Below the pieces are notes generated by a model. It did no database searches and was not told the origin of the DNA. It saw nothing but the letters and a program-made list of their open reading frames with translations. Below, in pieces: positions 1 to 61,019 of a DNA stretch of 64,000 nt (the stretch's first letter is position 1; the number at the start of each line of letters is the position of its first letter). The stretch is from Amphiscolops sp. MND2022. Its lineage: Eukaryota. A program made the position numbers and the translations under genes. The DNA lies in NCBI GenBank assembly GCA_964187785.1, contig OZ076412.1, positions 41,602,001-41,666,000 on the forward strand. The letters run 5' to 3'.

Positions 1-1599
1 ACGAACATTCGCTCGCTTCATCTCAATGACGTCAGCATACGAATGGATAATTACCACTCGCTCGTTCCATCGCACTAGAATTGAATTGTTGTCGGCAGCT
101 TTCCCACGCTTACACTCACTGCCGAACAAAATATCTGAATTATTCAGATCGTCCGAAAAATTTGTACTGAAAAAAAAGTAGAAAGTTTGAGGTTACAATA
201 ATATTCCTGCTAAAGCAGAAATATTAAAAAGAATAATTCGCAGCAAGAAACAAAAACTTGGCCTTGAGTGGGATTCAAACTGCTGTCTTTCGGACACGCA
301 AACCACTAGATCATCGAATCTTTTTCGAAAATGTTCCTCTGATGATATTGTTTGAATTTTTTTTAAAGTGGCCGGTCCAGTGGCATCTGGAGAATAAGTA
401 TACCCCTGTAAATTCTTGCAGAGAAGCACCTAATTAAAAACCAGCTACTGTTATTGAATTCCAAAATAAAAAGCGCCGACTTAAAATCGGGGTCGAACAA
501 CCACTTCGATTTTTTTTCATTTTCCGCTCACACAAAGAGGGAGGAAAATCATAATCTCTGTTGTGTTTTTTTTTCCAAATTCTGCCAAATCTCCATGATC
601 TCCATCCACTACTTGACTAATTCTATGATAATCAAGTAAGTTAAATAGCTATAGTTGAGCACCGTGGCCATATATGGCTCAGTTGAAGCGGAAACATCCC
701 GTTGCTCAGCAGTCGTCTTGTTTTCCATAGTTTGGATATCTTGGTCATGTCAACGACAACAAATTGCATCATCAAAAATTGTTCATGAATATTGCATACA
801 TCTAACTATCATAATGTTCCCAACCCCTCTGAAACAAGTAATTCAAAATGGCTAAGATGTCGATAGAAAAGCGTTTTCACTGTTTGTCAATACTAAGCAC
901 TCGAATAACGAGGGGTAGAGAAATCGGGCTGAGGACTGAGTGACATACACAGTAGGGTACAAGCAACCCCGTAACGGCCCAAGTCGGCACCCCGCGCAAG
1001 GCACGAAATTGTACCCGAGGGAAATGATTTTTGTATCTTCTGTTGAGTAAAGGTTTTTCGAAAATCCAAAAAAGTCCTAAAGTACTGAAAACTTGATCCT
1101 ATTGTCTCAGGCTGCCGCATGTTATAAAATTTTGTATTTCATTGTGTATTCCAGTGAAATCGCCCTTCCTGGAACGATTCCATTGACTTGAAGATCCAAG
1201 GTCGGAAAAAACAGATGAAACTGAAACTGTTTTTTGATCCAATTTCATTTCATATTTGATACTGTGAATCTCAATTTGTTTAGACGTTAGACATCAAATG
1301 TAAAGCACAACTGACAGACAAACACGGAAACGAGATGAAACATTTTGCTTGCTGAGTACGGCAGAGAGTACTTGTGGAATCCTTATCTACCATTTAGAAC
1401 GCACATACATCATTTCACGGCAAGCATGAGACTTCTATCTTAGCGCTAAAACTTAATCGTCCGGAAATGAACAACCGTCCTGAGCAATAAAAGAAACGCC
1501 GTTAAATGGCCAGTTACGGCCTGATGTTTAGAGCTGTTTGCACATTCGAATATTTTTGTGGATTATGAATACTGATAATTTGATATCATTTCGCCGAAT

Positions 1600-2250
1600 A
1601 CGACTAAATACCCTCAAATAATGTACACGACGGTAAGAAGCCGCATGAGGCTATCCATCTATTACTACGGGCTATTCATTTATCTGTGCTTATGAGCTAC
1701 CGTAGTTGACCGGCAAAGGCCAACAACCGTTGAGGACGGAAACGGGCATTGATGGCGGAGGGCCAATTGCGGCCTTAATCTATTAATTAGGTGTAGATGC
1801 TATCTGGAACAGTTTGGATAAGTATTATAACAATGTTCTGCACAAATCTTCCATTAGGATGATCAAATTACCCAAATTCCCATTGTTTGTGCCATCTGCC
1901 AGTCCTGTATAACTAACGTGCCCGTAAAGGGCCATTTCTGTAACCATATATACATATTTGTTATGCTCGCGCTTTGTACTAAAGCTGATTTGTGCTGATT
2001 GGAAAGGCCGAGTAGGGCTGTGCGTCCTAACTTTGCCGGTTGAGACTATTACTCTGCTTTTTGTTTAGAAGATGAAAGTAACAGGCGTAGCGTTAAAGCT
2101 TTGATGTTCATGTGCAGTACACGCGGACGTTCCTAAAAAGTGCTATTATAGTGGCCCAATCAATTTCCCTGCTTCGTAGTTGCCCTTTAACAATTTCTTG
2201 AAAAAACCCATTCGGGCACTTGGCCGGACATGTCCTTTTCATGAATTTCT
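1600..2250 (-). pseudogene. Degenerate Ty3/Gypsy-like integrase fragment
   Basis: Minus-strand translation gives STGKVRTHSPTRPFQSAQISFSTKREHNKYVYMVTE, resembling the start of the integrase core (P.RPF..V.IDF...KY.LV..D). Many stops; boundaries approximate. Confidence 0.35.
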
Positions 2251-2639
2251 GTGTATAGAGACATGTAAACTTTGTTCAATTTTTACGCAGATATCATCGT
2301 AGCGGACCAGTAAATTAACTCGCCGTTCCATCCCTCCGCTACTGCAATGTAAACAAACAATTCATTTTTAGAACATGTATCGTTGCTATATTTAGAATTG
2401 TTTTCATTCAGAGATGAATGAACACCCGTTTTTATGAGTGTCATTTTATGTAGGGTATATGAGCCCAGGATGGAATCTCAAAGCAGTTCGTCAAAACTGT
2501 TCACTTAATCTAAAAGTTGTTTTGTTGAAACACTACAAAATACAGGAAAAATTAAACATTGTTCTGTACAACTTTTTATGTCTTCAATTAGGAGACAAAA
2601 GGCCCAAACGAGATGCTCTAGATAATTGGACATACTGTT

Positions 2640-3131
2640 CGATCGTCAACCGCTTGGAGAAAATTCAAACTCAATAGAGAGAGAGAGAAATTCGAAAATT
2701 TGCAGAACGTCATAAATGTATCTACAGGTCAAGGGGACCCTGAGGCCATAACTACCTACAAGCAGAAGTCATCTCAAGAAAATGAGGCTCGAAACATTGG
2801 CAGTACAAATGGGACCGCTAGGCAAGATAGACTCTGGGAATCTATGGAAATGACATCAGTGGAAACGAATCTAAGGTTATCTCAAGTGATAGATTTACTT
2901 ATGAACATCCTGCAAGCGCAGATGAGTAAAGCGATCAATTCAGCGATCAATGACATAGAGATCCTCGAGATACACAAAATAGTGGGATGTCTGTTTTAAA
3001 GAGAAATTGGATTTTGGATTTCCACTTACCAACAGGGTTACACAGCGATGAGCCGGATGAGTCCAAAAGTAAACTACACAGAAGGACTCTAGATCTGCAT
3101 ACGCTATAAGAGACGTGTACATGGGTCCTTA
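2640..3131 (+). mobile_element. Decayed fragment of the LTR-borne ORF family (relative of 40365-40790 and of the LTRs at 55475/59546)
   Basis: ORF 2700-2999 RLSQVIDLLMNILQAQMSKAINSAINDIEILEI aligns with ORF 40318-40629 SQEIDTIMDTIRTQINRAISSAINDIVLPEI. Downstream DSRSA is similar to DSQSACGLRE. Confidence 0.5.
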
Positions 3132-12645: not shown

Positions 12646-12839
12646 AGACCTGGGGAAATTTGGATTAGGAAGTAGGAAACATAGAACGTTTTACACACCC
12701 GGTCCCAGAAAAGCTCTATATTGTTTGTAAATAACGTTGTCATGACAACGTTATTTACAAACAATATAGAGCTTTTCTGGGACCGGGTGTGTAAAACGTT
12801 CTATGTTTCCTACTTCCTAATCCAAATTTCCCCAGGTCT
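12646..12839. repeat. Perfect 194-bp palindrome (97-bp arms, no spacer)
   Basis: Checked base by base: AGACCTGGGG...GTTGTCA|TGACAAC...CCCCAGGTCT, centre 12742/12743, no mismatch. Confidence 0.97.
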
Positions 12840-40300: not shown

Positions 40301-40364
40301 GGAAACAGCGATTAAAATTATAAAATGGGACACTTCAAGAAAGCAACAAAGCGGCCATGGATAA

Positions 40365-40790
40365 TGTAATGAGTAGAGTCCGTGCTTTCCCTTAGACCAC
40401 ATGCGGATTGTGAGTCATTCTTTGTCAATTTAGCGTTTGGCTTCTTCCACGCATTACCAATACCAAATCCATCTGAGGTCTTACCCGTCCCACTACCATT
40501 TCGGTCCAAAAGCAAATTTCCTATTATGCTCATTATTTCAGGCAAAACTATATCATTTATGGCTGAACTAATTGCCCTATTGATCTGCGTTCGTATCGTG
40601 TCCATTATTGTGTCTATTTCTTGAGACAATCTAGCATTTCATTTCACCTGATAAAATCTCAATAGACTCAGTTAGTCTATCTCTACTTCTTCCATAACAT
40701 GACATCCATGTTAACGTAATCGGACATTTGTCTATCTAATTTGTCTAGCTTTCGCTTTTTGTTTTCTAGTTGAAGGCAATGTTTGTACAG
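40365..40790 (-). mobile_element. Internally deleted LTR fragment carrying the LTR-borne ORF
   Basis: Minus strand LPSTRKQKAKAR, MSDYVNMDVML and SQEIDTIMDTIRTQINRAISSAINDIVLPEI...DSQSACGLRESTDSTHY. Homology ends at ...CATTACA (40365), an LTR-type CA terminus. Confidence 0.55.
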
Positions 40791-41527
40791 AAAGAAATAC
40801 TCGAATTGTTCCTGTTATGTAGCTTTATCATCTTTTGGGTTTTACAGTAACCTTTAACAAAGCATTTTGTAATAGTGTAGGTCAAAGAAATTGTTTATTT
40901 CAGAGGCCTAACTTGGGTACATATACCCCAAGTGGGCATGACACTCATAATTACTATGGTCATGTTGCCAAAAATAGATTAAATTTAAAACTAGCCTCGT
41001 TTCATAGTTCTAAAAATAGACTGTTACGTCACTTCTCATTGTATTGGCAGTGTTCCCGGTAGGGCTGTCGGACGGCTCGGGTCGATGGTATATTAATTAC
41101 CGCCCTGGGACAAGTAAATAAAAAACATGCTGGGAACAGCCCGAGTCGGCGCTTAGCCAAAGTTAAAAAAGCGCAGAGAATCTTTTTGAGACTTTCGTGC
41201 TACTAAAGGGTGCTTTGACTGAAAACAGGGGGGGGGCTTTATTGGAATAAAGAATTTTCGGGAAAAAGTCGCAAAGTTTTAAAAACCTTCAAAGGGGTTT
41301 CCTTCTACTTTGTAGTCTTAGTAGCAAAGGCGAAGATTAAAAACTAGAAAGTGTAATCTTGGAAACGTGGTTATGTGTTAATGCATGCTTCACTGACTGC
41401 ATCAAGGTGTGGTGCCATCAGTTGTCAGTACAAAGTTCCCTCAACCTCCACAAAAAATGCCTGATGGTTGCCACAATGATAGGAAGTGCCTTGCAGCCAC
41501 AATTCTGTACATAACTTTTGGAGCTGT

Positions 41528-43317: not shown

Positions 43318-46300
43318 TGGCGCTGCGAGACAATTCTTTTGAATCCAGCGGGAAACAAACCACAAGCAGTTCGTCAGCTCTGGCGGGACTGCCAGCTTAT
43401 TGGGAGTGTCCAGAAGTACCACCTAAAGCAGAATGGGAAAAGTGGTGGGAACTTTTCGTAATGGCAATAAATGCCAAACATGCTATATCAGTTACCGAGT
43501 TACTTAGAACACCTACCCAAAACAGCCCACGACAGGCAGCACTACTAAACAATCTAAACGAACAGGCCGCAGAACGGAAAGTTGTCAGCATTTTCTTCTT
43601 ATCATTAGGAGTGGCCGGCAGAAAGAATCTAACCGACAAATTTCCGTATATGACGGTAGCCACAGCACCACTAGCAGAAATCAAAGAAAATTGCGAGCAG
43701 ACGTTTTACAAACCCAGGAATAGAACCCTGGAGCGATACAAATTCTTCGCACGAAAACAACAGAGTCATGAGTCGTAGAGTCAATTCTGGAATATCCTCA
43801 CGGGATTAGCGGCAAGATGTGACTTTGGTGAACAAACAGAGGGACTTATCATGGACGCATTCATCCAGAACATGCGACACAAGACAGTACAGGAACGCCT
43901 GTGTACTGAACCAAAAGAAAATACACAGGAAGCATTGCGATTCGCGATCGCATATGAAGAAGGCATAAGCCAACAAAAGAATTTCGCAGGAGGCGCAGAA
44001 ATAAAAACAGAACCAGTAATGGCAGTAGAAGGAAGAACAACAAGAAATCCATGTACACGATGCGGGTTCGAATTTTCGCAAAACCACTTAGCAGCATGTA
44101 AAGCGAAAACAGAGAAATGCAGAAACTGCGGAGTAACGGGACACTTCGCAAGAATGTGCAAGAGACCAAGAGCTGGCAACTCGCGCGGAGCTGGCAGAAA
44201 TCAAAATAGTGGCAACATGCGGAGAGTGAACATGATTGAACAATCAGCCGACCAATCAGGAGGCAGCTCGGAGTGGGACGAGGACAACATTGTACTACAC
44301 GTAAACGGGGTAGGTGTTAAACCATTTGTGTTGAAAGGAAAGATAAACAAACAACAATTTTCAACCATGATAGACTCAGGGTCGCCCATAACGATCTTCA
44401 CGAAGGAAGACTTATGCCAAATACTGAAAACAGACCTAATCTTCGCAAGACCCCTCCCGAAAAACGAAGAGTACGTTGACTACAACGGCAGACCACTTAA
44501 TCTGGTAGGATACATCACAGTTGACGTAGAAGTGGGGAAACAAAAGATGACACGAGCACGCAAAGTGATATCAAGAGACGGGAAGAAGTCACTGATTGGT
44601 CGCGACTGGCTAACAAAACTAAACTACCGACTCACAGAAAAACAAAATGAAGGTGAGTGCAAAAACATTGTAAATAACATTGTAAGAAAAGCGGAACTGT
44701 CCCCGGAACTAAAACAAATTCAGAAAAAGTTTCCAAAGGTTTTTAAAAGAACAGGTAAGATCATCGGACACACGATCAAGATCGAATTCAAAGAAGGGGC
44801 CAAAATCACGCAACAGAAGGGCAGACGAGTGCCATTACAACTACAGCAAGCAGTGGATAAAGAAATAAAGAACCTACTGGAGGCAGGACATATCAGGAAG
44901 ATCGACAAAGTGACAGACGAGATGTTCATACAACCGGTGGTAATTACTGTCAAGAAGGACAGAAGTGTCAAAATTGCGCTAGATGCCAGGTCGCTCAACA
45001 ATGCCATTTTGAAGAATAAATATCAAATGCCAGATATGGAAAGTCTGATGGATAAGATCGCTGAGGTAATTAACAGCAAACAAGAAGGCGAAGTATTTTT
45101 CACTTCATTAGATATGCAATACGCATATGGCCAGACACAATTACACCCCGAGACGGCGAAGCACTGCAACTTCCAAATTGTGGGAGGAGAAACGACGGGC
45201 ACATACGCATTCAACACAGGATTTTACGGGTTAACGACAATGCCCCCGGAATTCCAGAAAATCATGGACAACATTTTACACGAACTAAACAATACATTCA
45301 CATTTATCGATGATATATTAATTGTGACAAAAGGGACAAAAGACGATCACCTGAAGAAAGTGGAAGAAACCATCAAAGTGTTAGATGAAGCAGGAGTCAG
45401 GCTGAAAATAGAAAAATGCATGATAGCCAAACGAGAAACTGAATGGCTGGGATACATATTGTCGGCTGAAGGAATAAAGCCCATCAACGAAAAGGTGCAG
45501 TTTATCACTGAGAAATTAAGACCAAAGAATTTAAAAGACTTGCGGTCCTTCATGGGGGCAATAAATCAGCTAAATAAATTTATACCGAACCTAGCCAACA
45601 TATGTGCACCCTTGAGACCCCTCCTAAAACACGATAACGAATGGAAGTGGGAAAAAGAGCATGAAGAAGCTTTCGAGAAAATAAAGGAAGCAATTCGAAA
45701 GATCACCGAGTTGAAACACTTCAAAAGAGACCTGCCCCTAAGAATTATATGTGATGCTAGCAGAGAAGGGCTGGGGGCGATGTTACAACAGGAACAAGAA
45801 GAAGGTTGGGAAACGACCCACTACGCTTCAAGATTTTTGACGGAGTTTGAACAAAAATACTCGATCAACGAGTTAGAATTGTTGGCCGTTGTGTGGGCCG
45901 TGGATTATTTCCGAAATTTTGTATACGGCACAGAATTCGAGGTAGTATCAGATCATAAAGCCCTAACGACTATACTAAGAGGTAACAGAGGAAATAAAAC
46001 ATATTCGTCAAGACTTACTATGTGGGTGGATCGGCTACTTCCGTTCCAATTCAGGGTAGTCCACGCCCCAGGCCGCACCATGGGAATGGCTGATTATTTG
46101 TCCCGGCATCCGTCGGAAATTAAGGGTAACGATAACAAAATTAAAGCAGAGGAATTGTGGCACAATTGGTTCACCGTTAAAGAAATAACTAAACAATCCA
46201 ATTCTGTCTTAGACACAGCCAATAGAATTCAACGAGAAGAAGCAAAACAGCCAATGAGCGAGAAGTTGGCAACTTCGAGCGAAAGGCACGCGAAGGTGAA

Positions 46301-48214
46301 GGCGGAGGAAGTGAGCGAGATAACAAGTGCAAATAAACAAACAATTAAACAAATAGCAGCAACCATAACAAACGCGCAAGAAAGCAATCACAGTGCGAAT
46401 TCAAGCGACAGCGAACAGATTAACAATAACGCAAATTCCAGCGACCAAATGAGCGACGAGCTAATACAAGAGGCTAACAAGCCACCCATAAAAACGCCAC
46501 AATGCTACTCGGTGAACCAAATCGAGGTTCTGCAATCTCTGGGCAATTTTACATTTGCCTCACAATATGAATCCGACGAGTTCCTACAAAGAGTAATTGG
46601 GCTAATAAAAAAGCCAGACGCAACCAAAATTAATCGACTGCCAACACCGTGGCGCGAAAAGTTTCGATGCCTTAGCTTAGACGAGCACGACTTTATGTAT
46701 ATGGACGAGCGCCTCGTCATTCCAAAACTATTGCGACCAATTATTATGCGGTCACTGCATTATGGCCATCCCGGTAGGGACTGTATGCTCGCCACAGTCA
46801 GCAACGTATGGTGGCCGAAATTACACAGAGAAGTCGTAACAATCGCAAAGAACTGCCCCCAATGCTGTAACGCCGGTAAGAATATTAAAACTATACTAAG
46901 GCAAAAACAAGTTGGTAAACTACCTAGTTGCTCCGAAAATAACCAAGAGATAGCAATAGACTTCGCTGGCCCGTTTCAAAATGCAATTCATGCAAGAAAA
47001 TATTTACTAGTCTCAATAGATCATTTTTCGGGTTGGCCAGAAGCAAAATTCTTAAGCAAGCCAACAACTGACAACGTAATAGAGTTCTTGAGAAATTATA
47101 TATCAGACACGGGATCCCTAAGATAATTAGGACGGACCCAGCCACAATCTTTCGGAGTAGAAAATTCAAGGAATTTTGTAACAAGTGGCTGATAAAACAT
47201 ATCGAGTGCCCAATAAGCGATCACCGTGGAAACGGAAAAATCGAACGGCTAATAAGAACGATAAACGAACGGCTAAGAACAAATAAGGAAATAGTGGTAA
47301 AGAGAGACAAGTCTGGGTTATCAGAAATATTATTTGCCTTGAGAATGAACCCATCAAGAACAGGAAAATCGCCGTTTGAAAAATACACTGGAGTAGAACC
47401 GAACACGATAAAGAAATTAGTCATAAATCGTGACAAATTCATTTCAGAAAACCCAGAATTTCCCCTTACAGAGACGGACTTCGAGAGTGGCCAAGACTCA
47501 ACAATACTAGTAAGAGAACGAGCCAGAGGAAGCAAGCTAGAAGGCAGCTTCAAGAAAAGAAAAGGCGTGCTCTTAGAACAGTCGAATCACACAATCACGT
47601 TCCTACCCGCAGGTAGCAACAATCCATCGGTCCTGTCAAAAAGGGACATCGGATACAGCAACGAAGACCAGCCATGCTGCTCAAAAGAGGCAGATAAGAG
47701 AAAGCAGACGAAAATAGTGGAGCCGCCAACTACAAGCGAGCTGTCAACTACAAGCGAGCGAACAAATAGAAATGAGACAAGCAGCAAAAGTTTACCGCCA
47801 GATGCAGAAGTTGAACGCGCGCACGAGCCAATAAAAAGAGAGAACGAAAAGAAAGCGCCGGCAATGAAACAGTTCAAGGAGAAAATAGCAAAGAGAAACC
47901 AAAAGCAAAAGAAAAGCAAAATCGAAAAACGACCCACAATCTGGGAACAATTAGAAAATTCAGACTCTGAAGAAGAAGAAGAACAAAAACCAGAAAAGCC
48001 AAATGAAGAAACAATCACTGCACACGAAGAGAAGAACAAGCAGAATGAAGAAACAATCACCGCGCACGAAGAGAAGAACGAGCAGAACCAGCCCAAGGCA
48101 GAAAAACAACAGAAGGCAGAGCCAAGAAGGGGGGAAAGGAGCCGAAACAAAACCGAATTCTACGGCCACAATGTGATGATAACCAACATCGAACAGAGCC
48201 CGGAAAAGCAATAA
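43317..48214 (+). pseudogene. gag-pol polyprotein (about 1,630 aa) with one premature stop (TAG 43776-43778) and one frameshift (about 47107)
   Basis: CCHC knuckle CRNCGVTGHFARMC, protease MIDSGSP, RT LDMQYAYGQ and FIDDILI, RNase H CDASREGLGA and VSDHKAL, integrase HYGHPG...CPQC and IDFAGP. After the shift the frame continues HGIPKIIRTDPA...IERLIRTINERL into ORF 47294-48214. Confidence 0.95.
43318..43329 (+). promoter_or_regulatory. Primer binding site, tRNA-Ser-like
   Basis: TGGCGCTGCGAG directly after the LTR CA, complementary to the 3' end of Ser(TGA/CGA)-type tRNAs. The gag ATG (43317-43319) overlaps the junction. Confidence 0.65.
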
Positions 48215-54900: not shown

Positions 54901-55474
54901 GGGGTCAACTAAAAAAGTCCGGAAATCTCCACAAATACAATTCGCACGAAGCTAAATTTATGTGAGCTGAATTCTATGGGTGAAACCCTTTAGCTCTGAT
55001 ATAAATAAATTCTTGTCAAATTTTGTAAAAAAAACCCGTTCGATTTAAGTATTTTCCTTTCCCATATGAAATATGGGCGGAAAATAACAAAGACACTGTT
55101 CGAAACCGAAAGCTAAGGTGCTGATCCACGATTTGAAAAAGACAGTTCTACCCCCGGTAACTTGTTCTTTTTTGTCCTGGATAATGCACTAATAGAATGT
55201 GAGAATATGATAAATTTAGAAAAGTAGCCTTTGTTCACACTTCTACTGTTTTATATCTTTATACGTCAGATGAGAAGTATTTCTCAATGAAAGTTGTGTG
55301 GCAATGAAAAGAGGAAGATTTTCCATAATTTTCTGCCGTATTTCATGTACCGAAGGTAAAGTAAAGCATTCAATGAAAACCAGTGTTACTGCAAAACCGC
55401 TACTGCAGATTTTCACAACTGCCGCACAATTGTACAGTTATATGATCTTACAGGCAGGAGTTCGAGATTGAACC

Positions 55475-56736
55475 TGTCGTAACTCTGTAGAGTATTATCC
55501 GTGATCTCGACCAGAGTTACAATGATTAAAATGCATTTTAAGCAGGCTTCGCGTCCTATTCGGCTTCGGGATTCCAGTGTAGTCCCACGGACTGAAGGTC
55601 CACTTTCGTGCTAAATCCTGCTTTGAGCGCTCCCAGGCTAACGTGTGTTTGCGGAATGATTTTCTCATCACATGCAGGATAAATTGTACTCATATTCAGA
55701 GTATATGAAGTTTTCCAGCGTTCTTTTTACTAATTTTACATTATAAGAGTTCATCATTGTTCAAAATTCCTACATTTGAATTTCAGCTTTCTTGGCGCCC
55801 ACCGGACAATAGGTCCGCTTGCGAATCATTTGCTAGAGTGTTGAGAGTTGGTTCAATTACCAAGTTCATCGTCAATTAAGTTACTACTTCGGTGAGGCTC
55901 ATTAGACCGCAGGTCCATTTCTACATTTTCTCAACCGAGTTGTTTTCCAACTCATTCCTTCCGTAGTTTCTTAAGATAACATTCGTATCTTCTAATTCTG
56001 ACATTAGGTCACGTTTCCTCAATTTTCCATTTTCCAGTTGAAAGCTGTCTAAAAAGATAACTATCTTCAAGAGTAAATTTGGTCTTCAACGAAACAAAAT
56101 AGTTAGAGGTTACCAAGTTATCAAATGAAAAGTGAAAGCAGTAGTAACAATATAATGAATGGTTGATACAAAGGTAGTAATCTTCTGTGTCTTGTGGACT
56201 CAGCGTCTGTCTACATATACTTTAAAGTGCATGACAACCAATTTCTTGATAGTCATCGTGATAAAAATAGCATCAACATGGCATCATTGTTACGTCATGT
56301 CTAAATAGAGTTAAAAATAGCACCAGTATCAACATCAAAAGAAAGACCTAGAAACAACAGCAAGGGAGAAAGGCTTGTTACTTTGGACTAACAGTTCGGA
56401 TTTGTTTACTTTACTTGAAGTGAATGAGACATCAAAGAGCGAACTAAAACATCATAGTGGACCGACGGTCCGTTTGACTACAGCAGTAAGACTAGCAGCG
56501 CTGTGATTGGTTAGTAATTGAAAATTAATAATTCAAATATAGCATCTACATCTTGAAAGCTTGATGTATATATAATCAATGTTTGCTGTCGCCACGTGGA
56601 CCGAAGGTCCGATCAAAAAGCAAAAATGAAGTATCTACAACGTAAAAATGCGATGTATGTAATCAAAGTTTGCTGTCGCCGCGTGGACCGAAGGTCCATT
56701 TAGACAGATATATATCGCAGGGGGCAGCCTGCGACA
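55475..56736 (-). repeat. 3' LTR (1262 bp)
   Basis: Direct repeat of 59546-60805, with about 45 substitutions and one 2-bp indel counted by eye (about 96% identity). Confidence 0.95.
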
Positions 56737-56749
56737 GTCCCTTCGGTTC
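56737..56749 (-). promoter_or_regulatory. Short polypurine tract
   Basis: Minus strand GAACCGAAGGGAC immediately before the 3' LTR TG. Confidence 0.5.
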
Positions 56750-59530
56750 AAATCGAAATCGTCTAGTCCGCATCCAAGTCTTGGTTATTATTAAATCTCC
56801 ATCCGTACACGATGCGATAAGTTTTTAACATCAATCTCTCAACTTCTTGAAGTTTGTAATTAGGTCTGCATGTCCGCTCGAAGTTGTTTCCCTCCCATCA
56901 CAACTTATTTTCAATCAAGACGTTTCACCAAAGACTCTCGGTCCACATGGCTACACACGAGGAATTGGCCAATCACGTCCCGTTGATAGATGAGTGAGTA
57001 AATCTTGTAGATAAATGAAAGAATAAGGTGAAAATTGATGATATATGATAGTAAAATGTCGATGAAATATAAGACAATGTAATCAAATAAAAGTCCTGTG
57101 TAAATCGCTTGCAGGCTCCATGACACAAGAAAATAATTATAATCCGGTAAAAATGAAGTAGATTGTATTTGCAGGTAGGTGAGTGTAGTCAACGGTCCAG
57201 GTAGTCCATTGAAAGTATTGCTATTCAGTACAGTTTGTTAACATTGAATTTTACGCCCTTTTTCAATTGACTGTATGACACCTTTACAATTCTTGGTTCA
57301 TTCCCAAATGAATAAAATGCATTGGGACTTTACGTCTATTTGGCGTCAGCCTTTTACTGAGATTGCTCAACATTCTCAACTCAACTTGTTCACGTGATCT
57401 GTCGTCAAGCGATGAGTCCTCTTCTACACTATAGGTTGCTCCATTTAAACAGGCAAATAACCATTTTTTATTCCCTTTTTAATTTATACCATCATATCCC
57501 AGTGTCAGGCATTGTCCAATTTGTGACGCACATTCATCTGGGCGAAAACAGCTGTTAATACTTTTCTTTTCTCTCGCCGGACTTTGCACCCATTGCGACC
57601 TCCAGTCTAACAGACGTCAGTTTGATTTTTTTCTTCAGCAATCACACGTTTGACTTGTTCCACCACCAGATAGTACTTTGGAAGACTGTTTGAACCAGTT
57701 TTCTTTGTCAGAAGTTTTCGATTTCCGCTCTTCCGTCTTGGAAGTAACGTCAGGTTGGTTCTTTAAGGTGTCAATTTCGAACTTGATCAGGGCTTCTCAT
57801 TGACTAATTTACTTTCTCCATCGTAAAATGTGTTAACTAAGTGTAAACATTGTGTTAGAACTTGCTTTCGAAAGTCTTTAAACTGCGGTGAGATGGAATA
57901 TTTTTCAGGAAGTGACCCGCGTAATTTTGTTTCTATCCTTTCAGGAAAAGAAATCAACGGCCAACCAACTTCTGAGATAAAAGAACAAATTGATTTTTGC
58001 ATTCTGGTAACAGTCGCTTCTGTGAGCATTTCCGATACTGAGCTGAACTATTGTCATGTGGACTTTACGTCCGTTGAGCCTCAGCACTTGTTTGGTACTT
58101 TTTTGACCACTGGTTGTAGTGGACCCGCAGAGAGTGGTGGGACTGGTCTAACTTAGAATAAATATTTTTTGATTGACATCAACCTGCAGGAGTGTGAAAA
58201 CAAGTTTCAGTTGTGTCTATTTGATTGAAGCCACTGAAATTCTAAGTACTTTCAAATTGAAGGAAGGATCAAGGTGTTTTTGTCTGATGCGGAAGTATTG
58301 AAAGTTGCAAATGAGTTGCTGATACTTCGGGCACGATAGTATCTCCCCCTCCTGACGATTTTTGATTACCTAGGCGAGAGTCCGTGTAGTCCGAGGGTGT
58401 GTCTTCGCTAGGATCTGAATCGACTTTTTTCTCTAGCCCAGTGGACAGAAGGTCCGTCGGTATAAATTTGATCCTGCTGTCTATCGTCATAGGAACTAGT
58501 TCTTGTGTGCCGTGGCGTGTTAATGATGTAATGACAAACATGACTGCCACTGTTGCAATCGCAGTGACTCTTGGTCGAGTTTTGTCGATTGCGTTTTCTG
58601 ATTGACCCTGGATCAGTGAATAAGAGGGATCACATCAAAACCATTTCACAGATGCGTAGATGCTGTGGTAAGGTCAATGAAAGCTACATACTGCTCTCGT
58701 CCTAATGACGCAAATGTCAGAATAATTGAAACATGTGAACATGAAGAAACACTCTCGTTACTTAGACGTAAGGTCAACAAAACTCATTTGAAAAATGTGA
58801 TGGTGATATGAAGAAAGCTGTTTGTGCATGAACGTAAAGTGGACGTAAGCCAAACTAGGTCAAGAAAAGGAGGAAAGGCTCGAAACTGGCGTCATTTTAG
58901 AGTGAAAGGCAACGTTTTCAATTGTAAATGTTTCAATGTTCCATTTAGTCACTGAGCCCGGAACGCAAATCTTGCAGCACTAAGTGGATTTATCATGTGT
59001 TTGACATATAAGTGCAGAACTGCATTAATAATAAAATTAAGCTCCGTAGCACACTACTTTGCACGCAATACAACATCACTCAATCGCTAAAAGACGGGCC
59101 AACTTCCGCCGGTGAGTTTGAATCGAAATATTTTACTGTAGCCCGGTGGACGTATGGTCCAAAGATTTACTTCGCGCCTGTTATATTTCCAGCTGCCGTC
59201 GAAGCGACGTAAGGTTCAGCTAATTTCACAAACTTCAGACTTAACGCAATTAAGCGCAAGCACAAAGTTGACAAATGCGTCCAATATTTCGGATCTAGAC
59301 TTTTCAGCATTGATAGCAAACAATATATTACTACATTCTTGGTTGTTTGCTTGACGTTGCGGTCAATGTTTAGACGAAGTTGAATAATGAAATATTAGAT
59401 CTTGAAATTCAACCAAATTAGACCTGGGGAACCGCTGGCTGGTTAAGATAAATTCGAAATTTTCGCTGGGGCCATAGGGGATTGTGTGGGCCGTTCGGTC
59501 AGGAACTCAGGAACCATATGAGGGTAAGTT

Positions 59531-59545
59531 GGGCTCCTGTCACCA
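59531..59545 (-). promoter_or_regulatory. Primer binding site, tRNA-Leu-like
   Basis: Minus strand TGGTGACAGGAGCCC directly after the LTR CA; compare the canonical Leu PBS TGGTGTCAGGAG. Confidence 0.65.
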
Positions 59546-60805
59546 TGTCGTAACTCTGTAGAGTTTTATCCGTGATCTCGACCAGAGTTACAATGATTAA
59601 AATGCATTTTAAACAGTCTTCGCGTCCTTTTCGTCTTCGGGATTCCAGTGTAGTCCCACGGACTGAAGGTCCACTTTTGTGCTAAATCCCGCTTTGAGCG
59701 CTCCCAGGCTAACGTGTGTTTGCGGAATGATTTTCTCATCACACGCAGGATATACTGTCCTCATATTCAGAGTATATGAAGTTTTCCAGCGTTCTTTTTA
59801 CTAATTTTACATTATAAGAGTTCGTCATTGTTCAAAATTCCTCCATTTGAATTTCAGTTTTCTTGGCGCCCACCGGACAACAGGTCCGCTTGCGAATCAT
59901 TTGCTAGAGTGTTGAGAGTTGGTTCAATTACCAAGTTCATCGTCAATTAAGTTACTACTTCGGTGAGGCTCATTAGACCGCAGGTCCATTTCTACATTTT
60001 CTCAACCGAGTTGTTTTCCAACTCATTCCTTCCGTAGTTTCTTAAGATAACATTCGTATCTTCTAATTCTGACATTAGGTCACGTTTCCTTAAATTTCCA
60101 TTTTCCAGTTGAAAGCTATCTAAAAAGGAAACTATCTTCAAGAGTAAATTTGGTCTTCAACGAAACAAAATAATTAAAGGTTACCAAGTTATCAATTGAA
60201 AAGTGAAAGCAGTAGTAACAATATAATGAACAGTTGATACAAAAGTAGTATTCTTCTGTGTCTCGTGGACTCAGCGTCCGTCTATATATTCTTTAAAGTG
60301 CATGACACCCAATTTCTTGATAGTCATCGTGATAAAAATAGCATCAACATGGCATCATTGTTACGTCATGTCTAAATAGAGTTAAAAGTAGCATCAGTAT
60401 GAACATCAAAAGAAAGACCTAGAAACGACAGCAAGTGAGAAAGGCTTGTTACTTTGGACTAACAGTTCGGATTTGTTTACTTTACTTGAAGTGAAAAAGA
60501 CATCAAAGAGCGAACTAAAACAGCATAGTGGACCGACGGTCCGTTTGACTATAGCAGTAAGACTAGCAGCGCTGTGATTGGTCAGTAATTGAAAATTAAT
60601 AATTCAAATGTAGTATCTACATCTTGAAAGCTTGATATATATAATCAATGTTTGCTGTCGCCACGTGGACCGAAGGTCCGATCAAAAAGCAAAAATGAAG
60701 TATCTACAACGTAAAAATGCGATGTATGTAATCAAAGTTTGCTGTCGCCGCGTGGACCGAAGGTCCATTTAGACAGATAAATATCGCAGGGGGCAGCCTG
60801 CGACA
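59546..60805 (-). repeat. 5' LTR (1260 bp)
   Basis: Direct repeat of 55475-56736. Confidence 0.95.
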
Positions 60806-61019
60806 GAACCTGGTCGGTGTCAATGTATTCATCGTCTCATTCAATTTCACGGATTTTTTCAATCCCCACTCAAAGAGAACATTTAAACCCCCCCCCTCAC
60901 TAAAAAAGAACCGAAAGTTAACTTTAATGGATTTAAGATTGACGGTTAAACATACAAAACTTCACAGTTATTGATCACAGATTAGGCCCAACTTTTATAA
61001 AGCTCAAAAGATACCTTAA

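Follow-up and report, generated by a model that had tools for sequence, protein, structure and literature searches.

Remnants of a gag reading frame that begins inside the long terminal repeat: a dead Ty3/gypsy derivative of Amphiscolops and its intact relatives

Why should both long terminal repeats (LTRs) of a retroelement carry the remains of a protein-coding frame that runs through the LTR end and the primer-binding site (PBS) into gag? The question is raised by an element on the minus strand, at 55475-60805 of the window, that is, the whole 64,000-nucleotide stretch of contig OZ076412.1 of Amphiscolops sp. MND2022 analysed here. The first-pass annotation took it as the norm that gag starts at or after the PBS, but this norm has a precedent against it in Ty1, in which gag is described as beginning in the 5' LTR (PMC3522557) and the PBS as lying within GAG (PMC4974528). 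We conclude, with a probability of about 0.85, that the window element is a dead non-autonomous Ty3/gypsy derivative and that its intact kin carry the first 187-217 gag codons in the LTR, under purifying selection and likely translated through the PBS.

The element is bounded by two direct repeats with TG...CA ends and is flanked on each side by the same 5-nt target-site duplication (TSD; Table 1). Immediately 3' of its 5' LTR stands TGGTGACAGGAG; the tRNA-Leu(CAG) gene behind the PBS assignment lies at L212:1440-1521, and all 21 intact relatives have the same PBS codons, M-V-T-G. The TATA-like element of the window LTR matches those of intact relatives in relative position. Queries for capsid, nucleocapsid, reverse transcriptase (RT), RNase H and the integrase (IN) core gave only shuffle-level scores in the internal region, and a 121-codon frame at 58272-58634 scored weakly against two parts of pol (67 versus 47 and 52 versus 42 for shuffled sequence). 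The relic LSQAAPCD scores 55 against a shuffle maximum of 54, which is borderline by itself, and is supported by its position. With LTRs, PBS and polypurine tract (PPT) kept and RT and IN absent, the window element is a non-autonomous Ty3/gypsy derivative, and the copy is a fossil in which no intact gene is kept. TSDs differ among the window copy, the copies on C12, C13, C6 and C1 and two solo LTRs on C8, which are thus independent insertions. The subfamily would have been copied in trans by proteins of an intact family, via the common LTR ends, PBS and PPT; a gypsy gag-pol at 43779-48214, considered as the autonomous partner, was rejected because it belongs to another family.

Table 1. Positions of the features discussed, numbered from the first nucleotide of the window
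Feature	Position	Strand	Evidence or remark
5' LTR, 1260 nt, TG...CA	59546..60805	-	Self-alignment, 96.3% to 3' LTR; PBS next
3' LTR, 1262 nt	55475..56736	-	Self-alignment
TSD GGTTC, upstream copy	60806..60810	-	
TSD GGTTC, downstream copy	55470..55474	-	
PBS, 12 nt	59534..59545	-	Pairs with tRNA-Leu(CAG) 3' end plus CCA; codons M-V-T-G
TATA-like element	60282..60291	-	Motif scan; putative function; ~170 nt upstream of N-terminal motif of relic
Polypurine-tract region and LTR start	56714..56773	-	Weak relic of tail of U3-entering sense ORF (LSQAAPCD)
Internal region, 2.8 kb	56737..59533	-	
Relic of antisense cargo gene of intact relatives	57813..58078	+	Score 122 versus shuffle maximum 49
Gag N-terminal frame relic	59479..60112	-	Alignment; ~190 LTR codons plus 22 beyond
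Second copy of broken frame, 3' LTR	55475..56040	-	LTR-only scores 122-123 versus shuffle maximum 46-50
Internally shortened LTR remnant, related family	40364..41112	-	ORF tail at start, Gag N-terminal relic at end
Old LTR remnant, related family	1103..2999	+	ORF tail 1102-1185, Gag N-terminal relic 2569-2993; 3' end not located

The Gag relic in the 5' LTR is interrupted, according to which alignment is used, by 2-4 stops and 6-7 shifts, and has no ATG where relatives start. The peptides quoted in the first-pass annotation are all present on the minus strand, spread over three frames, except that STGKWKFKE, assigned to both LTRs, occurs in the 5' LTR only, the 3' LTR having STGKWKIEE. The junction had been read correctly: EITDKTLQSYD-MVTGAQLT crosses the LTR CA and the PBS in a frame open for 45 codons ahead of the LTR end (...QSYD/MVTGAQLT), and HMVPEFLTERPTQS follows in a different frame. 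The 1-nt shift past the PBS, also noted there, is decay of the window copy, because intact relatives continue without it; programmed frameshifting at the breaks was likewise rejected, since intact relatives show none there.

Frameshift-aware alignment, with X placed at the breaks and natural intact Gag N-termini as queries, gave scores of 118-153 with the PBS part included (shuffle maximum 46-52) for six queries from the nearer families. The best database relatives scored 127-132 over the LTR part only (shuffle maximum 46-50), with 78-79 identities in 187 positions over 60090-59479. The Gag N-terminus of the farthest family scored only 48 in the same alignment (shuffle maximum 50), and the far-family HMM, run frame by frame, gave the window LTR only 3-5 bits. 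The stops at 59994, 59949, 59741, 59738 and 59611 are common to 14, 11, 14, 12 and 14 of 14 sister LTRs, respectively, so that the relic was dead before the subfamily spread; the frame is broken in all solo and paired sisters. Two other places in the window, 40354-40638 and 2569-2993, match intact Gag N-termini (E 1e-19 and 6e-17). The remnant near 40 kb ends at the LTR end, 40364, without a PBS, and its TSD is not clean. Direct tblastx of the window element against both places gave no match, and thus the relatedness of the three sites, proposed earlier, holds through the intact relatives and not by direct comparison.

For the intact state, 27 relatives of ~16 kb, chosen for long frames, were fetched; an LTR pair was found by rule in 24, with a perfect 5-nt TSD in 22 of these. 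Autonomous kin with one open frame from LTR to gag, as anticipated by the first-pass annotation, do exist: in 21 of the 27 one uninterrupted frame starts at an LTR ATG, with 187-217 of its codons lying before the LTR end, and continues across the PBS into gag. The distance from this ATG to the LTR end is 562, 595, 598, 646 or 652 nt in the 21 copies (20 with perfect TSDs; LTR identity 98.8-100%), always 3n+1, and the junction reads x/MVTG, which recurs at residue 181-217 in 120 of 129 full-length database relatives. The Gag start M-P-S-T-R is invariant in the intact relatives, and the frame upstream of the LTR ATG is open for 3-20 codons only.

Downstream of the PBS, intact Gag contains the capsid and two CCHC knuckles (C-X2-C-X4-H-X4-C). 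Similarity of the post-PBS region to the capsids of PNMA2, HIV and dArc1 (best PNMA2, E 0.0099, with many further capsid rows) lends modest support to the capsid assignment; a weak match to DUF1759 occurs there in 34 of 34. The pol frame follows in -1 after an A-AAA-AAC heptamer, and Pfam places PR, dUTPase-like, RT, RNase H and IN domains in P0009; the best solved match of pol is Ty3 Gag-Pol (E 3e-47). By their LTRs and TSDs, the order PR-RT-RH-IN with a gypsy-type RNase H, and capsid plus CCHC knuckles, the intact relatives are Ty3/gypsy elements. BEL/Pao was rejected, P0009 having no Peptidase_A17 match and Gag two knuckles rather than three, as was Ty1/copia, the order PR-IN-RT-RH being absent from the relatives.

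The expectation that dN/dS would fall below 1 among copies was borne out: the LTR part gave 0.04-0.38 in 14 of 14 pairs (13 copies, 175-215 codons), with bootstrap upper bounds of at most 0.73 and third positions changed most in all 14, for pairs that are non-independent, with several dS values above 1 and loci chosen for long frames. One pair is 91% alike upstream of the ATG and 82% in the coding part, which points to recombination. A comparison of the paired LTRs in a single old copy gives dN/dS of 0.95. In a young non-autonomous family of 6.7 kb, with LTRs 99.3-100% identical, the frame is broken in 7 of 7 copies fetched, and since this family moves, the LTR frame is dispensable in cis. A second conserved sense ORF (~260-290 codons) terminates 28-31 codons inside U3, its LTR codons giving dN/dS of 0.04-0.50 in 6 of 6 pairs. 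Considered as a possible membrane fusion glycoprotein of the kind found in Env-bearing errantiviruses, its product is acidic with conserved His/Cys, and the ~280-aa sequence has no Pfam match at E <0.1. Because this ORF ends inside U3, both integrase attachment ends lie within reading frames.

It might be supposed that Gag begins at the junction ATG, to which the LTR contributes its last base and the PBS the rest, and that the frame ahead of it is open by chance or is preserved for signals in the DNA or RNA. All 21 copies have this ATG in frame, and it could act as a second start; the capsid lies entirely downstream of it, and the LTR ATG has a weak context, with T at -3, in 15 of 20. However, the junction ATG is an automatic consequence of CA/TGG, and against this reading stand the low dN/dS of the LTR part, LTR-frame lengths that vary by whole codons only across families 27-59% identical, and the mobility of young non-autonomous copies despite the lost frame; we give it hardly any credence. 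We also consider it improbable that the genomic RNA starts downstream of the LTR ATG, which would then belong to U3, with Gag made from a transcript of its own, longer or spliced. In favour of this, the 7 LTRs scanned lack a conserved AATAAA and show no clear poly(A) signal, and Cer1 is described as evidence that splicing of 5' gag exons can yield another protein in gypsy elements (PMC10309623). Against it, a TATA element precedes the LTR ATG by 122-242 nt in 20 of 21 intact copies, and the intervening stretch is eight-fold poorer in ATGs (11 in 2814 nt versus 249 in 8000 nt upstream), as expected of a scanned leader; of 20 predicted leaders, 6 contain 1-2 ATGs.

Besides serving as the Gag N-terminus, the LTR piece might be made alone from 3' or solo LTRs and either restrain the family trans-dominantly or give rise to fusion genes. 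A promoter region, an ATG and 187-217 codons are present in every intact 3' LTR; among the best 150 of 1452 database matches most are gene calls of 90-300 aa; P0107 (913 aa) changes at the LTR end into the gag frame of another element; and the predicted oligomerising helix would fit a dominant-negative role. L077, a candidate LTR fusion, proved to be a tandem chimera of gag and another protease, with a PBS. The second, fusable copy of the frame proposed earlier is thus present in the 3' LTRs, but its tails are 1-33 random, mutually unrelated flank codons in 21 of 21 pairs, among which no adopted fusion gene was found. Inserted LTR copies moreover drift neutrally, as the old copy shows, and the broken frames of all sisters of the window element speak against an LTR-only product. 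We regard this addition as rather unlikely, and it is equally doubtful that the LTR acts as a portable gene, with thousands of 3' and solo sites making the 200-residue oligomerising domain alone and tuning or poisoning particle assembly, or fusing it splice-free to adjacent frames, and with another gene overlapping the opposite end of the LTR.

If, as we favour, Gag is translated from the LTR ATG through the PBS, the TATA box would set the RNA start and leave a short leader, and minus-strand strong-stop DNA would be ~675-810 nt. Ribosomes would cross the PBS, and a single RNA could then not be translated and loaded with primer at the same time. The LTR-encoded part may be a matrix-position domain with a basic tip, disordered linkers and one ~60-residue amphipathic helix. 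This helix (residues 79-138) is predicted with pLDDT ~70-83 within a poor full-length model (mean pLDDT 42.9), and its hydrophobic period is 3.79-3.88 in 8 of 8; judged from periodicity alone, it is probably a coiled coil, through which the domain would oligomerise and help Gag localisation or assembly. The LTR domain gave no credible Pfam family and no usable ESM Atlas match, and Foldseek with the poor full-length model gave no match at E <0.001.

At the DNA level the layout is Ty1-like, the gag frame beginning in the 5' LTR and containing the PBS. In Ty1 only about a dozen gag codons lie in the ~330-nt LTR, whereas the present clade has 187-217, a whole predicted domain; Ty1 has copia order, tRNA-iMet and a +1 shift, the clade gypsy order, tRNA-Leu and a -1 shift. 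The layout is therefore a long variant of the known Ty1 layout, not a first case. Ty1 was the sole precedent for gag starting in an LTR in the full-text collection searched, which excludes Repbase and most subscription journals, so that an earlier description is possible. In its overlap with U3 the ~260-290-codon ORF is comparable to HIV nef and MMTV sag, whose coding frames run into or lie in U3, but HIV and MMTV have gag after the PBS and only one coding LTR end, whereas the clade codes at both. It shares with Ty3 and Cer1 the order PR-RT-RH-IN, 5-nt TSDs, TG...CA ends and capsid plus CCHC knuckles, and its large Gag domain ahead of the capsid recalls that of Cer1, described as having a leucine zipper, most Ty3/gypsy Gags being said there to start with the capsid (PMC10309623). 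It differs from Ty3/gypsy elements generally in the LTR-encoded Gag extension, the dUTPase-like domain, the antisense cargo and the U3-entering ORF. The window element itself resembles LARD-like elements and Quinta of wheat, which is described as having LTR termini, PBS and PPT in common with its partner Cereba and as having lost RT and IN (PMC11302176); by that description Quinta retains an intact gag, whereas the window element retains no intact gene.

Where Ty1 has a few gag codons in its LTR, this clade has a third of Gag there, and both integration ends of the LTR lie inside selected reading frames. Gene annotation is affected too: remnants of these LTRs appear as hundreds of orphan gene calls of 90-300 aa, judging from the best 150 of the 1452 matches. 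The system poses the questions of how a PBS embedded in coding sequence accommodates both translation and primer annealing, whether a strong-stop DNA of 700-800 nt is tolerated, and whether solo LTRs with promoter, ATG and domain restrain the family or seed genes.

The genome searched comprises 1.07 Gb in 1929 contigs. The peptide at 40321-40638 of the window, used as query, returned 8421 candidates; many matches among the 150 scored form same-strand pairs about 14 kb apart, in which the upstream member has a frame of 569–593 codons and the downstream member one of about 195–235. Two more searches (150 scored of 14475 candidates, and 150 of 16987) revealed further families with frames of 576–615 codons. 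Of 27 pairs examined, selected for long frames, 24 passed the LTR-pair rule and three failed. The continuous frame from the LTR interior into gag proposed in the first-pass annotation is open in 21 of the 24 LTR pairs of this set picked for long frames: its ATG lies 562–652 nt upstream of the LTR end, always 3n+1, and 554–599 aa span the junction of the LTR end and the primer-binding site (PBS) as x-MVTG. In the remaining three the LTR frame is interrupted early by a stop. The LTRs of the 21 open-frame pairs are 1450–1747 nt long and 98.8–100% identical, and the PBS codons GTG ACA GGA are unvarying, third positions included, in all 21. A capsid-like fold and two CCHC knuckles are located downstream of the PBS, and pol follows in the -1 frame after A-AAA-AAC in 7/7 copies inspected. 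The pol domains (Pfam) are protease, a dUTPase-like stretch, RT, RNase H and integrase, and the nearest solved structure is Ty3. At one locus, L073, the dUTPase-like stretch has an E value of 0.00036, slightly under the Pfam cut-off. In public protein sets x-MVTG occurs at residue 181–217 in 120 of 129 full-length relatives, and every database match listed is an unnamed ENA gene call.

The copy in the window is a fossil. Self-alignment of this LTR element gives repeats of 1260 and 1262 nt (96.3% identity) with TG...CA ends, the target-site duplication (TSD) GGTTC, and TGGTGACAGGAG directly 3' of the upstream repeat; these 12 nt, the PBS, are complementary to the 3' end of a genomic tRNA-Leu(CAG) gene. 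The tRNA-Leu 3'-end pattern has 874 matches genome-wide, and a dense tandem array of such ends was also noted. All peptides named in the first-pass annotation are present, spread over three frames. The 3' half of the LTR as DNA query gave 41 matches at 70–100% identity (40 scored of 128 candidates), and a long LTR frame is absent from all 30 loci listed by this search. The longest open stretch in the 14 closest sister LTRs is 49–85 codons, and the protein-like frames contain five stops that recur in 11–14 of the 14. Since the sister LTRs share stops, differ in their TSDs and include two solo LTRs, the spread of the subfamily postdates the death of the frame. The 2.8-kb interior retains 22 gag codons past the PBS and a fragment of an antisense gene, and within it capsid, nucleocapsid, RT, RNase H and integrase core scored at shuffle level. 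One sister copy, L004, is rearranged, with the same flank following both LTRs and the upstream LTR about 440 nt from the PBS.

Alignments of the window frame were made with X at breaks and judged against score maxima from shuffles. The 5' LTR plus PBS scored 118–153 against six nearer-family Gag N-termini (shuffle maxima 46–52) and 48, which is not significant, against that of the farthest family. The best database relatives show 78–79 identities in 187 positions, with LTR-only scores of 130–132 (shuffle maxima 46–50). The related peptides that had been reported at two other sites in the window match intact Gag N-termini directly.

Coordinates of the features described
Feature	Location	Remark
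LTR element	window 55475-60805 (-)	
U3-entering ORF, tail relics	window 56714-56773, 41042-41101, 1102-1185	
U3-entering sense ORF	L074:3991-4884 and equivalents	260-290 codons
dUTPase-like stretch	L073:3022-8232	between protease and RT
Antisense frames	L073:8416-9645 (-), L074:1181-2971 (-)	
Tandem chimera	L077:2343-5687	1.9 kb
Rearranged sister copy	L004, G000:C12:47372146-47372589	
tRNA-Leu-like 3' ends	G000:C8:35587799-35639269	tandem array
Separate gypsy gag-pol, another family	window 43779-48214 (+)	frames 1115 and 380 aa
Perfect inverted repeat	window 12646-12839	97 nt, zero spacer

Purifying selection on the LTR-encoded gag codons, which had been anticipated as dN/dS below 1, is borne out by Nei–Gojobori ratios of 0.04–0.38 in all 14 pairs among 13 copies (bootstrap upper bound <=0.73), the pairs being non-independent and several having dS >1. 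The capsid core gave 0.01–0.05 (10 non-saturated pairs) and the linker 0.06–0.57. Upstream of the ATG dozens of indels accumulate in four of five comparisons; in the fifth this DNA is more similar than the coding part, which suggests recombination. A young 6.7-kb family is mobile despite a broken LTR frame, and comparing the LTRs of a single old copy gives a dN/dS of 0.95; it follows that the constraint is on protein from autonomous copies and not on cis signals. That family (L117, L119-L124) is non-autonomous and very young, its LTRs being 99.3–100% identical, and its broken frame holds tandem DLRS-type repeats. Another family, spaced at 8.2 kb (L190-L193), has an LTR frame that stops early but is followed by 554–557 open codons including a second Met, and is possibly a Gag-only helper.

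Of 21 copies, 20 have a TATA element 122–242 nt upstream of the ATG, and the predicted leader, ATG-free in 14/20, has 0.39 ATGs per 100 nt compared with 3.11 upstream. The transcript would have a short leader with initiation at the LTR ATG, and strong-stop DNA would measure 675–810 nt. The ATG context, weak in 15 of 20 copies, counts against initiation there, and no conserved poly(A) signal was found in the LTRs scanned, which counts against this transcript layout. The AlphaFold2 model (34 sequences, mean pLDDT 42.9) is confident solely for helix 79–138, whose hydrophobic period of 3.79–3.88 in 8/8 copies exceeds the heptad value of 3.5 and suggests a right-handed coiled coil. Residues 1–16 have a net charge of +6. 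The LTR-encoded part, in the matrix position, may serve oligomerisation or targeting.

A second sense frame runs across the polypurine tract. In 19 of 21 copies it terminates within the 3' LTR after 28–31 codons, the two exceptions being shifted or internally deleted there; upstream of the LTR it is open for at least 200 codons in 19/21. Its predicted product is acidic, with a conserved His, a CxxC and a further Cys, and matches no known family in Pfam. Its LTR codons gave dN/dS of 0.04–0.50 in 6/6 pairs, and each of the three LTR remnants in the window begins with a relic of its tail. As gag crosses one LTR end and this ORF the other, each attachment end lies inside a reading frame. Two long antisense frames were also observed between pol and the 3' LTR.

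The first-pass annotation further supposed that the 3' LTR carries a second, fusable copy of the frame. P0107, a database protein call of 913 aa, shifts at the LTR end into gag of another element, so that in-frame fusion does occur at the DNA level. The 3' LTR frames end 1–33 codons beyond the LTR end in 21/21 copies, and the longest running past it at any locus has 267 aa. In the tandem chimera at L077, the first 350 Gag residues are in frame with the protease of another gypsy family.

Few Ty1 codons are involved in the LTR-encoded part of gag. Ty1 gag starts in the 5' LTR (PMC3522557), and the Ty1 PBS is located within GAG (PMC4974528). In Cer1, Gag carries a large N-terminal domain containing a leucine zipper, and capsid is the start of most Ty3/gypsy Gags (both PMC10309623); an autonomous/non-autonomous pair is given in PMC11302176, and PMC8396678 and PMC3601003 contribute nothing further. 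No account of a long Gag extension encoded in the LTR was found in the literature searched, most subscription journals being outside that scope. The proposed N-terminal gag extension inside the LTR is a real feature, its reading supported at the DNA level. The intact relatives share the gag-in-LTR layout of Ty1, and as judged from sequence theirs is a new, extreme variant of it in a Ty3/gypsy clade, with LTR coding at both ends.
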